From Armatimonadota bacterium (GTDB taxonomy: Bacteria > Armatimonadota > Armatimonadia > Armatimonadales > Armatimonadaceae), in NCBI GenBank assembly GCA_026392155.1, contig JAPLCP010000078.1, positions 59,941-123,940 on the forward strand: DNA of 64,000 nt. The letters are read 5' to 3'. Both the position numbers and the translations under genes were made by a program. Of this stretch, positions 2,684 to 45,696 are shown one piece after another. Every line of letters begins with the position of its first letter. Position 1 is the stretch's first letter. Under the pieces are notes generated by a model. The model saw only the letters and a program-made list of their open reading frames with translations, did not search any database and was not told the DNA's origin.

Positions 2684-3586
2684 CTAACCTCCAAACCCAC
2701 CCGGCAACTGTGGAGCCTTGTAGGGAACCTTCTTGAAGCCTGCGGGAGCGACAAAGAGGCTTGCGGGGAGCTCTGCTTCGCTCAGCTCGACAACCTCTGT
2801 CTTATTGCTAATAGGCTTGGAAAGATCCTGTCCTTGTGCTTCGGCAAAAGGACTCTTGATGGTGATCTTCATGTTGGTCAGGAGGGAGAAGCCCTTGATC
2901 TTGGCCATTGTCTCCATCATGCTCTTCATTCCTGGCATGTTGTTCATCATCTTCATCATGCCGCCCATCATGCCGCCTCCGATCCCTGGAATTTGAGGAG
3001 CCGCTGCGGTCGAGGTGGCAGGTAGCTTGATCTCTTCCGTGGTCCACTGCTCGCCTTCCATCGTGATATTGGCAAGCTCCCCTGCCCCCTCGTCGCCGCC
3101 CTTCATTCCCATGCTCATCGTTGCTGTCCAGAGATAGTCGGTCGCTTTTTTGCCTGCGATTTGGCGCTCATGGCCTCCTGGCTTAACATCACTCTTGACC
3201 TTCATCTCCATCATCTCCAAAAACTGTGCGGCAGGGCCACCGCCTTCGTTGAGCGCACCAAGCATCTCCGACAGCTTGACCGTGGAGTAGGTCTTCTTCT
3301 TCGTGTCAATCTGAGTCATGGTTCCCGCATCATTGTCGGTGATCGTGATCATTCCCGATGCATCCTCGACACGGACTTTATTGCCCTTGTAGTAGGTTGT
3401 GGTCTTGGATGGCTCACCAGGCTTGGACGCGGCTGCACCTCCCCCGAGGCCACCGGCCAGCCCCGCCATCGAAGGACCATCCATGGTCATCTTCGAGATC
3501 ACTTTGATGTCTGCACGTGCATTTCCTGCAAGTGCCATTACAACAAGACCCGGAACAAAAACTCTTTGTATTCGCTTAAAAAACAT
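2684..3586 (-). CDS. Secreted DUF4412-like protein (tandem paralog)
   Basis: Signal peptide ending ARA-D; YYKGNKVRVE, IDTKKKTY, LPASLFVAPAGFKKV shared with neighbour. Confidence 0.7.
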   Translation of the reverse strand: MFFKRIQRVFVPGLVVMALAGNARADIKVISKMTMDGPSMAGLAGGLGGGAAASKPGEPSKTTTYYKGNKVRVEDASGMITITDNDAGTMTQIDTKKKTYSTVKLSEMLGALNEGGGPAAQFLEMMEMKVKSDVKPGGHERQIAGKKATDYLWTATMSMGMKGGDEGAGELANITMEGEQWTTEEIKLPATSTAAAPQIPGIGGGMMGGMMKMMNNMPGMKSMMETMAKIKGFSLLTNMKITIKSPFAEAQGQDLSKPISNKTEVVELSEAELPASLFVAPAGFKKVPYKAPQLPGGFGG

Positions 3587-42035: not shown

Positions 42036-43802
42036 CTACTTGAAGCTGGGCAGGACAATGCCACGCAAAATCACTTTTTGAGCGGCGAGGAAGACGATAA
42101 GAATCGGGAGGGCGGCCAGCGTCAAGGCGGCGAAGATGACGTACTGGGGGGCATTGGACTGCAAGTTGTAGAGCGCCACCATGATCGTCCACATCTTCGG
42201 GTCTTGACAGACAACCAGCGCGAAGAGAAACGCCCCGTAGGCTCCGGTGAAGGCATTGAGCGCGATGACAGAGAAGATCGGCAGCGAGAGCGGGAGCGTG
42301 ATCCGTGCAAACATCATCAGCTCGGTCGCGCCATCGAGGATGCCCGCTTCGTAGAGCTCTTTGGGGAGTGAGTCGAAGAAACCTTTGAGCAAGAAGATCG
42401 AGTAGCCGCTGGCAAGGCCAGGGAGAATCAGAGCGCCGAAGGTATTGAGCAGCCCCAGGCTCTTGAGCATCAGAAAGTTCGGGATCATGGCCACTTCGGC
42501 GGGAAAGGCCATGGTCGCCAGGAGAAACATCAGCACTTTGTAGGTGTAGGGCAGCGGGTAGCGCGAGAGCGCGTAGGCACACAGCGGGTTGACGATGAGT
42601 GCTCCCAGGATCGAGAGGACACAGAACACCACCGTGTTAAAGAGCGTACGACCGCTCTGCCCGCCGGTCATGAGCTGGCGGTAGACATGGACAAAGTTGC
42701 GGCCTGCAAAGTCGCGGCGTAGCTCGGAGCCGTGGCCCTTGACGAAGGCAAGGTCGGCGAGTGCTTGGGGAGGCTGGGCAGCGGGGTCGCCTAGCTTCTC
42801 GCGCCATAGGGTCTCGGGGGTTACGGCCTTGAAGGCACTGATGGGGGCATCGGTCTTGATAAACTCCATCCAGTCCGTCAGTGAGATACCATCGGCAGGA
42901 GGCGCGGCGGGCAGCGGGACTTGTGGGCGCTTGCGCTTGGTGAGAAACGCCTGCCACGCGGGTGCGGCACTTACCTCGATCTGGAGCATGCGGAGTGGGA
43001 ACTTGGTGCGCATAAACGCCTCCCAGTCCGTGTAGCTCGCTCCTGCGGGAGCTTTGGGCGAGAGAGTCAGGGCGCTCCAGTCCGCAATATCGGTTTTCCA
43101 GGCAGCGTTCAGGCCTTCTAGCTTCCCCTGGTACACATCCTCCTTGAGGTATTTTCGCCAGAGCGCATCCCCAAATGTCGGGATGAGGTAGTTCTTCGGG
43201 AGGCTCCGGCGGAACTCCTGCCAGTCCTTGACCTTGGGGCGCTCACTCTGGGGCATCCACGCCCGAAGTGCGGGTTTCTCAATCGGGGCGGTGATGGTCT
43301 CAAACCGGACATTTTCCTCGCGCCAGGTTTTATTGACGGCATCAATATCGTTGTTGTATTTTTGCCGGAGCCAGTCTCGAAAGCGCATCAGAAGCGGCGC
43401 AGGGGCGTTTTCATGCTCCCCAAAGCCCGCCCGCAAGAGGCTTTCTGGGAGACTCGCCACAAACGCGTCCCACTCCCCCACTTTATCCGTATCGCCTGTC
43501 GGAAGAGGCACCTCCGCGACTTTTTTATAGTCCGCGTGGTGGGCCGCGTTGAGCTCGTCTATGTTATTGGCGTAGCGATCCTCAAGGTACTTGACATAGA
43601 GCGCCGAATCTTCGCGCCAGTAGGCAGGGATCAGCCGAGCAGGAGCGTAGTCGTTGAAGTCCGACTGGCTCTTGGTGGCCGTCGAGAGCATCAATAAAAA
43701 CGGATAGAGAGTCGTGACCGCACCAAGGCTGAGCACGAGATATAGTGCCGCAAGCCCCGCACGAACCTTAAACGAGTTTCTCCCAATCGGCGAGATGTGC
43801 AT
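42036..43802 (-). CDS. Carbohydrate ABC transporter permease (MalG-type) with large extracytoplasmic insertion
   Basis: LYPFLLMLSTA N-terminal TM; C-terminal AYALSR, FLLKGFFDSLPKELYEAGILDGA (EAA loop); about 300-aa insertion. Confidence 0.88.
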   Translation of the reverse strand: MHISPIGRNSFKVRAGLAALYLVLSLGAVTTLYPFLLMLSTATKSQSDFNDYAPARLIPAYWREDSALYVKYLEDRYANNIDELNAAHHADYKKVAEVPLPTGDTDKVGEWDAFVASLPESLLRAGFGEHENAPAPLLMRFRDWLRQKYNNDIDAVNKTWREENVRFETITAPIEKPALRAWMPQSERPKVKDWQEFRRSLPKNYLIPTFGDALWRKYLKEDVYQGKLEGLNAAWKTDIADWSALTLSPKAPAGASYTDWEAFMRTKFPLRMLQIEVSAAPAWQAFLTKRKRPQVPLPAAPPADGISLTDWMEFIKTDAPISAFKAVTPETLWREKLGDPAAQPPQALADLAFVKGHGSELRRDFAGRNFVHVYRQLMTGGQSGRTLFNTVVFCVLSILGALIVNPLCAYALSRYPLPYTYKVLMFLLATMAFPAEVAMIPNFLMLKSLGLLNTFGALILPGLASGYSIFLLKGFFDSLPKELYEAGILDGATELMMFARITLPLSLPIFSVIALNAFTGAYGAFLFALVVCQDPKMWTIMVALYNLQSNAPQYVIFAALTLAALPILIVFLAAQKVILRGIVLPSFK

Positions 43803-44198
43803 CTATTTTCGGCTAGCCAGGAACTCTTCTTCTTTGGCCGTAAGCTCATCGGGGGTGATACGCTTGGCCTCGCCGGGGGCAAGATCCGCGACCGCAACAA
43901 GAATGGCGTAGTTGAGAGCGAATTTCTTCTCCGCCCCCGTCAGGCGGTTTCGTGCTTCCTCAGAGAGCCCATCGAGCCACTTGGTTTTCATGGCCTTCTC
44001 GTTCTCTTCGTGGCGCTTGCGAAGCTCCGTCGGAAGCGCATCACGGTCTACCAGCACCGACGCTTCCTCATCGTAGACTTTCAGGATCGTGCCGCTCATG
44101 CCAGCGTAGTGAGGATAGTAGAGTCCGCTCTTGATATCAGCGGGAGTTTGTTCGCGCACGGCGATTGTAACGGTGTCGCCGGAATTGATCTTGGCCAT
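43803..44198 (-). CDS. Hypothetical protein (possible SH3/KOW-like beta domain)
   Basis: INSGDTV...YAGMSGTILKVYDEEASV; stop codon abuts the permease ATG. Confidence 0.7.
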   Translation of the reverse strand: MAKINSGDTVTIAVREQTPADIKSGLYYPHYAGMSGTILKVYDEEASVLVDRDALPTELRKRHEENEKAMKTKWLDGLSEEARNRLTGAEKKFALNYAILVAVADLAPGEAKRITPDELTAKEEEFLASRK

Positions 44199-44219
44199 GC
44201 GGGTATTATACCCGCATGG
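44195..44219. promoter_or_regulatory. Perfect 25-bp palindrome: bidirectional leaderless promoter containing both start codons
   Basis: CCATGCGGGTAT-T-ATACCCGCATGG; TATAAT (-) and TATTAT (+) overlap, each 6 nt before an ATG (44198 and 44216). Confidence 0.75.
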
Positions 44220-44419
44220 AATCCTACGAGCACTTTCGCATCGCAGTCTGGGTCTTTGGCATCCCCACGATTATCGCCCTCACCATCCGCGCGATCCGAA
44301 AGATGCGGGCCATCAAAAAGCGCCACGAGGAGCTACTGGAAGAGGCGGAGCGCAACCCCCAAAATCCTCATCAGGCCCTCGCGGAGCTCTATGCAGAGCC
44401 CCAGAAGCAAAGACGCTAG
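44216..44419 (+). CDS. Small single-TM hypothetical protein
   Basis: TM IAVWVFGIPTIIALTI then a charged helix; ENPQNPHQALAELY end. Confidence 0.7.
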   Translation: MESYEHFRIAVWVFGIPTIIALTIRAIRKMRAIKKRHEELLEEAERNPQNPHQALAELYAEPQKQRR

Positions 44420-45696
44420 CGAATCAGCACATCACCGGGCTTGTTTGATCTTGGTGTGACAAGCGCGGGTAGTGGATGGTCGAACTCCAGCTTGATGACC
44501 GGTGTCGTATCGGCGAGGGTATTGGTAGCCAAGCCCGTGAGCCTCAGAAAGGCTTGGTGCTCCACATGGTCGCTTGGGGTCATCTCCAGGGAAAAGGCAA
44601 CGGGCTTGCCTGTATTGAGGAGAGTGGCCCGTGCCGGGGCAATAGCAAGCGGCTTGAGCTTGATGGCGCTTCCCACCAAGTCCGTGTGGCAGATAACATA
44701 GAGCGTATTGGCTTTTCGGGTGAGTAAAACGCTCTTATTGGCCGCAAGCTCCGAGCAGGGCGTCGTGCCCTCAAACGCCTCGCGCACGGCCTTGTACCAG
44801 CGCCCTATCCGCTTGAGAATCCCCGCAGACTCCACTGGAATCGTGCCGTCGCCCTTTGGCCCGACATTGAGCAGGTAGTTGGCATCCCGCGCCCGAAACT
44901 TAGCAATCGAGCGCATCAGGTGCCGGTCGGTGTAATAGTCCTCGTTTTTTCGCCAGCTCCAGCTCTCCATCCCCACGGACTGACAGGCCTCCACGCGTCG
45001 CATAAAGTCCACTTTGCTCTCGTAGTCGCGCTCGGGGGTGCCAAAATCGCCCTCATCGTAGCCCCGGTCGTTGATCACGGCCTTGGGCTGGAGCTGACGG
45101 ATGAGTGCGTTGATGCTCGTGTCGCGGTGCAGGTCCACGTTCATGTCCCACCAGAAGCCATGGAGCTCGCCATAGTGGGTGCAAAGCTCGCGCACCTGCC
45201 CCCGCACAAACTCCGTGTAGGCCAGTAAGTCGGGGCTGTCTTCTGGCTGCGCGGGGATCTCGTGGTGCCGCCCCTGGTTGGGGTAGCTCGGGTGGTGCCA
45301 GTCCGCGATCGAGTAGTACAGACACAGCGGGAACTTGCGCCTCTGGCACGCCTCAGCGAGCAGCTTGACGATATCTTTGCCGTAGGGCGTGTTCATCGTG
45401 TTGTAGCGCGTGAGCTTCGTGTCCCAGAGGCAGAACCCATCGTGGTGCTTGGTAGTGAGGCAGAGATACTCCATCCCCGCCTCCTGCGCCAGGTCCAGCC
45501 ACGCCTCGGGACTGAACTTCGTCGGGTTCCACTGCGCCGCAAGCTTTGTGTACTGGCTGCGTGGCACCCGCCGCCTCCACTGTTCCTGCTCGTGCCAGCC
45601 ATTTATCGCGTAGAGCCCCCAGTGCACAAACATCCCGTAGCGGCGCTCAAACCACCAGTCACGTCCATCACCAAATCGCGGAACCAGGCTATTCAT
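44416..45696 (-). CDS. Alpha-L-fucosidase (GH29)
   Basis: YGMFVHWGLY, LTTKHHDGFCLW, YYSIADWHHP, FWWD nucleophile, NYLLNVGPKGDG. Confidence 0.92.
   Translation of the reverse strand: MNSLVPRFGDGRDWWFERRYGMFVHWGLYAINGWHEQEQWRRRVPRSQYTKLAAQWNPTKFSPEAWLDLAQEAGMEYLCLTTKHHDGFCLWDTKLTRYNTMNTPYGKDIVKLLAEACQRRKFPLCLYYSIADWHHPSYPNQGRHHEIPAQPEDSPDLLAYTEFVRGQVRELCTHYGELHGFWWDMNVDLHRDTSINALIRQLQPKAVINDRGYDEGDFGTPERDYESKVDFMRRVEACQSVGMESWSWRKNEDYYTDRHLMRSIAKFRARDANYLLNVGPKGDGTIPVESAGILKRIGRWYKAVREAFEGTTPCSELAANKSVLLTRKANTLYVICHTDLVGSAIKLKPLAIAPARATLLNTGKPVAFSLEMTPSDHVEHQAFLRLTGLATNTLADTTPVIKLEFDHPLPALVTPRSNKPGDVLIR

Follow-up and report, generated by a model that had tools for sequence, protein, structure and literature searches.

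The stretch of DNA analysed here (the window, 64,000 nucleotides) contains a perfect palindrome lying across the start codons of two divergent genes, and the question is whether this element serves as a promoter for both genes, as the binding site of a regulator, as a structural element of the DNA, or whether it stands there by chance. The palindrome occupies positions 44195-44219 (ccatgcgggtattatacccgcatgg) and can be written as CCATGCGGGTAT-T-ATACCCGCATGG. Its two arms (44195-44206 and 44208-44219) are 12 nt each, are 100% complementary according to a repeat finder and are separated by a 1-nt centre. The symmetry ends with the arms, with g at 44194 and a at 44220. The original prediction had described a perfect palindrome with 12-bp arms, an ATG in each arm (44198 on the minus strand and 44216 on the plus strand) with 17 nt between the genes, and the hexamers TATAAT (minus) and TATTAT (plus), each 6 nt before its ATG, with the two A's 18 bp apart. 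The sequence confirmed all of these points, and the repeat finder also confirmed the palindrome and its arms. The following features are referred to in the text, with the basis of each assignment in brackets:

44195..44219, no strand: perfect palindrome with both start codons and two overlapping predicted leaderless promoters (sequence, repeat finder, genome search)
44204..44209, plus strand: -10 hexamer TATTAT of the predicted plus promoter, with GG in front (44202-44203) and the 6-nt discriminator ACCCGC behind, predicted start A44216 (sequence, genome-wide logo)
44205..44210, minus strand: -10 hexamer TATAAT of the predicted minus promoter, with GG in front (44212-44211) and the 6-nt discriminator ACCCGC behind, predicted start A44198 (sequence, weight-matrix score)
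43803..44198, minus strand: conserved hypothetical protein, 131 aa, first gene of the minus-strand operon, predicted leaderless (ORF, homologues, model)
42036..43802, minus strand: ABC permease, 588 aa, BPD_transp_1, with a MalG/UgpE-like C-terminal part and a long N-terminal extension (ORF, domain search)
44216..44419, plus strand: single-helix membrane protein, 67 aa, predicted leaderless and monocistronic (ORF, dN/dS)

Both start codons at the palindrome are the first to follow an in-frame stop, the 131-aa ORF beginning at the ATG whose A is 44198 and the 67-aa ORF at 44216. Neither protein has a Pfam or NCBIfam match. Members of the 131-aa family were found across the Armatimonadota and their N-terminus aligns phylum-wide. 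The 67-aa protein has one hydrophobic helix and was found only in Armatimonas; the dN/dS of its ORF is 0.14-0.26 over four lineages, which corresponds to purifying selection and therefore indicates a real gene. Judged by conservation, both flanking ORFs are taken to be real conserved genes. A sub-threshold TraM match of the 67-aa protein was dismissed (17 bits against a cut-off of 22). An AlphaFold model of the 131-aa protein (pLDDT 83) consists of an SH3-like barrel with helices, and in a fold search it weakly resembled ribosomal protein eL21 and NdhS (TM about 0.4). Relatives of this protein are labelled 'ribosomal protein L21E' in some sources. A role of the 131-aa protein as a regulator was rejected on the basis of the model, which has the SH3-like fold and no recognisable DNA-binding fold.

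Downstream of the 131-aa gene, the ATG of the permease gene abuts the TAG stop codon and no Shine-Dalgarno sequence was found for it. This arrangement suggests coupling of the two genes by termination and reinitiation. The order of a 131-aa gene followed by a MalG-like permease of 586-588 aa with a long N-terminal extension is seen in the window (42036-44198, minus strand) and at the related loci L016, L018 and L020. Together with the divergent membrane protein of 67-71 aa, these genes look, from their conserved arrangement, like a three-gene module in Armatimonas. On the other side, the stop codon of the 67-aa gene is at 44417-44419, and its 3' end overlaps a convergent alpha-L-fucosidase gene (44416-45696, minus strand) by 4 nt. 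Between these two genes no hairpin followed by a T-run, as in a terminator, was found.

The 25-mer palindrome is present as a single copy in the 4.77-Mb Armatimonas assembly with 59% GC. At this GC content the chance of a perfect palindrome with 12-bp arms is about 8.7e-8 per position, from which about 0.4 such palindromes per genome are expected for one spacer length. Because of this expectation the palindrome alone is not improbable, and by itself it is unremarkable genome-wide; what is not random is that it lines up to the base with two start codons and two -10 hexamers. A terminator reading was rejected as the palindrome carries no T-run, and no intrinsic terminator was found in a scan of 43700-44700. 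A different perfect palindrome of 26-28 bp (CCCTCCTCCCAAGCTTGGGAGGAGGG) was noticed in identical form at C126:18723, C129:51568 and C192:6507 and as variants at C144:10075, C215:41236 and C37:2954; it holds GGAGG/CCTCC motifs resembling Shine-Dalgarno and anti-Shine-Dalgarno sequences and may be a dispersed repeat element.

The register of the palindrome can be described as two promoters laid over each other. Each strand reads GCGGG-TAT(A/T)AT-ACCCGC-ATG, and the minus and plus -10 hexamers are offset by 1 bp. The predicted starts are 18 bp apart, so that the base at -k in one promoter is paired with the base at -(18-k) in the other; the base pairs used by both are -7T/-11A, -6A/-12T, the CC at -5/-4 with the GG at -13/-14, and +1A/-18T. 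In particular, A44205 and T44209 are -11A and -7T on the plus strand and their complements are -7T and -11A on the minus strand. The 17 nt between the start codons (44199-44215) contain no GGAGG-like sequence; a gap of this length leaves no room for a Shine-Dalgarno sequence and is taken up entirely by promoter sequence. No two-hexamer sigma70 promoter and no Rfam family were found in the area of the locus. That the two conserved genes show no other promoter signal gives indirect support to the prediction of RNA synthesis in both directions. The reading that we favour, with a probability of about 0.78, is that the palindrome is a fused bidirectional promoter, composed of two -35-less leaderless promoters of the type standard in this lineage and placed head-to-head.

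The existence of such a standard type was examined by counting hexamers at all spacings before the ATGs at which ORFs of 100 aa or more begin, in the whole genome. TANNNT was found 529 times at 6 nt before the ATG, compared with 123-228 times at other spacings of the same codon phase, and 416 times at 7 nt, compared with 222-266 times. By arithmetic, the excess of ATGs preceded by a hexamer corresponds to some 600 genes. For the 6-nt class the logo reads GG(-14,-13)-TAnAAT-A(-6)-N4-C(-1)-ATG with no -35 signal, and both sides of the palindrome fit it. Leaderless genes mapped experimentally in Deinococcus deserti (PMC4007540) and in mycobacteria (PMC3898074, PMC4633059) bear this signature, and by analogy the logo is taken to mark genes of the leaderless type. 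The pattern extends beyond the source genome: GGTANAAT-N6-ATG occurs 142-190 times per genome in six Armatimonas genomes, against 0-1 for the reversed control, and 8-88 times per genome in other genera of the family and order, with 0-7 overall for the reversed control.

Within this class the promoters of the palindrome are good matches. With a weight matrix built from the other candidates of the genome, the minus-strand promoter scored 15.3 bits, a value exceeded by 1.7% of the 526 other candidates (median of the set 10.9). The plus-strand promoter differs only at -9, where T replaces A at a cost of about 2.4 bits by the logo frequencies, and it still lies above the median. GCGGG is the commonest 5-mer before the hexamer (20 of 528), and ACCCGC is the joint-commonest discriminator. 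Single-position frequencies predict GCGGG and TCAGG in front of the hexamer about 4 times less often than they occur, an excess that hints at an upstream contact specific to the lineage.

It could also be argued that the palindrome stands at the start codons by chance or as a structural leftover, and that one or both genes are transcribed as leadered mRNAs from promoters inside the opposite gene. The chance expectation given above would allow this, and a few TANNNT hexamers do lie within 150 nt on each strand. One of them is a weak TAGGAT on the minus strand (44226-44221), from which a transcript of the 131-aa gene with a 16-nt leader is conceivable; this hexamer has no GG before it and is not kept in A. 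rosea. More generally, however, the alternative hexamers are without the GG context and are not conserved, and none belongs to a two-hexamer promoter. A leader would moreover carry both arms of the palindrome and fold into a hairpin of 11-12 bp burying the AUG, with no Shine-Dalgarno sequence. This explanation would also leave unexplained the hexamer that stands 6 nt before both starts in all orthologues (see below), and we consider it quite improbable.

If the palindrome is a fusion of two common promoters, the same layout may be met elsewhere in the genome. Divergent pairs were collected in which both hexamers stand at 5-8 nt and both ORFs have at least 60 aa, and five of these pairs have a 17-nt gap (C64:3521, C87:104136, C139:76482, C227:8298 and C179:21491). 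The last one was not counted as a fifth fused pair, its partner ORF of 133 aa being dubious and without a Pfam match. The sequences of the four pairs retained are:

C64:3521, 17-nt-gap pair: CATGCGCGTATAATACCCGCATG
C87:104136, 17-nt-gap pair, the palindrome locus: CATGCGGGTATTATACCCGCATG
C139:76482, 17-nt-gap pair: CATGGAGGTACTATACCCTCATG
C227:8298, 17-nt-gap pair: CATGCAGGTACAATACCCGCATG

In the three pairs other than the palindrome locus both hexamers are at 6 nt and five of the six genes have Pfam domains, the exception being a 690-aa ORF at C139. Pfam matches beginning at residues 2-3 confirm the epimerase at C64 and the phosphorylase at C179 as real genes; the partner genes at C64 and C227 also contain domains, as does one of the partners at C139. 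Among the divergent leaderless pairs the 17-nt gap was counted 5 times, compared with about 1-2 per gap length, so that it is not clearly commoner than other gaps. The unfiltered histogram of CAT-to-ATG gaps was uninformative, being dominated by the shadow ORFs of a GC-rich genome with a 3-nt period.

GTA..ATAC....ATG was found 27 times in the genome, and CAT stood at the mirror position in 6 of these (four loci), against about 0.33 expected from base composition. CATNNNNGTANNATACNNNNATG was found at 14 places among 41 related genomes and the reversed control at 0. ORFs of more than 320 aa lie on both sides at the same-genus loci with two long ORFs (C64 of the source genome, G004 and G005), while at a fourth same-genus locus (G001) and in more distant genomes there is often a gene on one side only, as would be found with chance CAT triplets. 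In another family of the order, a near-identical core (CATGCGGGTATAATACCCGTATG; L012, G026:C28:49961-49983) precedes a 315-aa gene whose N-terminus appears IspH-like by eye. The mirror-side ATG at this place opens an ORF of only 4 codons; either its CAT is accidental or non-coding transcription starts there in the divergent direction.

The fused pairs also show what degree of symmetry comes with the layout. The other three are symmetric at 8-10 of 11 positions, and in a promoter model with independent positions the perfect 12-bp symmetry of a fused pair has a probability of about 0.13% (1.3e-3). Because of this low value the promoter consensus alone does not force perfect symmetry, and the palindrome locus is the extreme of its class of fused pairs. 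Extra selection for symmetry was not evident in the other three pairs, in which 11 of 18 unconstrained positions were symmetric compared with about 7 expected, a difference that is not significant.

The history of the locus was followed in other Armatimonas genomes, including the type species A. rosea, of which YO-36 is the cultured type strain. Contigs almost identical to the locus come from samples such as JGI 3300042691 and 3300042553. The divergent pair of the small protein and the 131-aa protein is kept throughout the genus, and the permease gene follows the 131-aa gene in most loci. In all orthologues with the gene pair, the ATG or GTG of each gene is preceded by TAnnnT at a distance of exactly 6 nt. 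With the identity of the 131-aa protein to that of the window, the gap between the start codons changes as follows:

L018/19: protein identity 66%, gap 47 nt
L002-4: protein identity 82-83%, gap 52-62 nt
A. rosea L016/17, L020, L023: protein identity 85-87%, gap 36 nt
window, L024-26, L001, L021/22: protein identity 91-98%, gap 17 nt

The small gene starts with GTG in all separated versions and with ATG in the fused versions. The palindrome is confined to relatives with at least 91% protein identity, being absent from A. rosea, L020, L023, L002-4 and L018 (at most 87%). Even among the fused versions it can be imperfect: L021/22 has the fused layout, but position -1 of the 131-aa gene is T and position +4 of the small gene, the base after the ATG, is A. 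The original prediction had proposed conservation of the palindrome in related genomes as a check, and in this respect it did not hold, perfect symmetry being lost in A. rosea and others and imperfect in L021/22. The loss undermines a special role for perfect symmetry, be it as a cruciform or as an operator, and leaves the two-way leaderless promoter untouched. The conserved and presumably selected feature would be the -10 hexamer that each gene has at the leaderless distance, and not the palindrome. The reading of a minimal bidirectional module for two leaderless genes, also part of the original prediction, is in turn supported by three independent lines of indirect evidence: the hexamer enrichment and logo, the recurrence of the layout and the hexamers of the orthologues.

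Two further observations concern changes around the promoters. At L021 (692-1277, minus strand; 91% identity lineage) a gene of opposite orientation, and not the permease, comes after the 131-aa gene, and it appears that the operon was rearranged there with the predicted fused promoter kept. Upstream of position 3001 the intergenic region of L003 carries a short tandem duplication (ggggactttatggggg...) in comparison with L002 and L004. From such comparisons the intergenic region seems prone to insertions and deletions, in keeping with the series of 62, 52, 47, 36 and 17 nt.

Another reading takes the palindrome as an operator, in addition to its promoter function or in place of it. A symmetric dimeric regulator would then bind the shared -10 region and switch both genes off, or on, together. 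The 12+1+12 symmetry does go beyond the independent-position model, as calculated above, and L001 has all 25 nt in identical form next to flanks that diverge by about 10%, although this would happen by chance with a probability of roughly 0.1 and is weak as evidence. Against an operator, no regulator gene lies nearby. The neighbouring genes include those of the permease, the fucosidase, a PASTA-domain protein and a DAHP synthase; domain searches gave no DNA-binding domain for the neighbours tested, and the modelled fold of the 131-aa protein is SH3-like. The genome-wide near-matches of the core (at most 3 mismatches) are all ordinary leaderless promoters beside CAT/ATG, and both -10 hexamers persist in the orthologues in which the palindrome is absent or imperfect. 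An operator is therefore regarded as unlikely. An action through DNA structure, in which a cruciform formed under negative supercoiling modulates or blocks both directions, is hardly credible. The inverted repeat is perfect with an AT-rich centre, and as single-stranded DNA it is predicted to fold into a hairpin of -13.1 kcal/mol (z = -5 against shuffles); however, the arms are short (with a 3-nt loop, 11 bp would remain), the relatives lose the symmetry and keep the promoter layout, and the other fused pairs of the genome are imperfect.

In the preferred reading of a fused bidirectional promoter, the promoter unit would be GG-TAnAAT followed by a 6-nt discriminator and ATG, present in two copies whose -10 hexamers are shifted against each other by one base. 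RNA polymerase, carrying the housekeeping sigma factor, would bind in either orientation and start at A44216 (plus) or A44198 (minus), and both mRNAs would begin with AUG and be translated without a Shine-Dalgarno leader. We infer from the sequence not only these transcription starts and the leaderless translation, but also the relative strength of the two directions. The only asymmetry would be the central base, which gives TATAAT toward the 131-aa/permease operon and TATTAT toward the small gene, so that the operon direction should be favoured. Since one shared -10 core would hold one RNA polymerase at a time, co-expression of the two sides would mean two constitutive promoters and not coupled firing.

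The near-symmetry of the element can be understood because each base pair serves both promoters, and perfect symmetry would be the extreme of this sharing. Most of the palindrome would thus result from two good promoters with a common core. The fusion probably took place in the recent ancestry of the source genome, through the merging of two older leaderless promoters that stood back to back. To turn the 36-nt form into the 17-nt form, a 19-bp deletion joining the TAT of one hexamer to the AAT of the other would be enough, and it would have been accompanied by a GTG-to-ATG change in the small gene. From these comparisons the fused promoter looks functional and its perfect symmetry incidental. 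That the symmetry was kept for a reason, or was made after the fusion by template-switch (quasi-palindrome) correction, seems improbable. Possible reasons for keeping it would be a symmetric regulator acting on the shared core, or identical promoters that fix the ratio of the small membrane protein to the 131-aa/permease operon; the synteny of these three genes, divergent throughout Armatimonas, suggests that they make up one transport module.

The elements of this arrangement are known already, namely bidirectional promoters with 18 bp between the starts, leaderless genes with a hexamer and divergent leaderless pairs, and the palindrome reveals no new mechanism. In published bidirectional promoters the -10 elements of opposite strands overlap, the starts are 7-25 bp apart with a mode of 18 bp, and +1A lies opposite -18T (bioRxiv 10.1101/2020.01.31.928960; PMC10268837; PMC12825309). 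The claim of the original prediction that overlapping symmetric -10 boxes cause divergent transcription agrees with this geometry (18 bp, -7T/-11A, -18T). Like the promoters described by Warman, Forrest, Wade and Grainger, the palindrome has overlapping -10 elements, predicted starts 18 bp apart, reciprocal -7T/-11A and a +1A that is the -18T of the other side, and both directions need only a short piece of DNA. The Warman/Grainger promoters have mapped starts, mostly in E. coli and Salmonella, whereas the starts of the palindrome locus are predicted from sequence. One of their two RNAs is often non-coding and the mRNAs are leadered, whereas at the palindrome both are protein-coding and both genes are predicted to be leaderless, which would place the start codons inside the symmetric element. 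In E. coli, the two directions compete to a relevant extent only under strong activation of one of them (PMC12825309).

In D. deserti (PMC4007540) and M. tuberculosis (PMC3898074), leaderless genes preceded immediately by a -10 motif have been mapped by experiment. As in D. deserti, M. tuberculosis and M. smegmatis (PMC4007540, PMC3898074, PMC4633059), the hexamer at the palindrome stands 6-7 nt before ATG/GTG with no -35 and no Shine-Dalgarno sequence. The likeness to D. deserti and mycobacteria extends to the number of such genes, hundreds per genome, and to the tolerance of GTG as a 5'-terminal start codon. In Armatimonas the upstream extension is GG at -14/-13, compared with TGn or the mycobacterial SRN. 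Closely juxtaposed divergent promoters were described in M. tuberculosis, including the divergent leaderless pair prpD/Rv1129c (PMC3898074). In known divergent leaderless pairs the promoters lie side by side, whereas those of the palindrome share one heptamer. A literature search gave no report tying leaderless mRNAs to Armatimonadota, and a search on leaderless and bidirectional promoters combined gave nothing relevant. The results presented here add computational evidence that the little-studied Armatimonadota rely heavily on -35-less promoters and leaderless mRNAs, and this usage matters for the annotation of gene starts in their genomes.

A stretch of 25 bp that would hold two promoters and two translation starts is a clean case of compact gene control in bacteria. 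A further comparison is offered by the same locus in A. rosea and the other Armatimonas, which has the same two genes, the same 6-nt hexamer distance and the same promoter type. The hexamers are separate there, with 36-62 nt between the starts and a small gene beginning with GTG, whereas the lineage of the window has one TATnATA core and ATG. Read in this way, the series of gaps from 47-62 through 36 to 17 nt would show two independent promoters merging into a shared -10 core, and it could serve as a natural test set for the choice of orientation by RNA polymerase and for the competition between the two directions.
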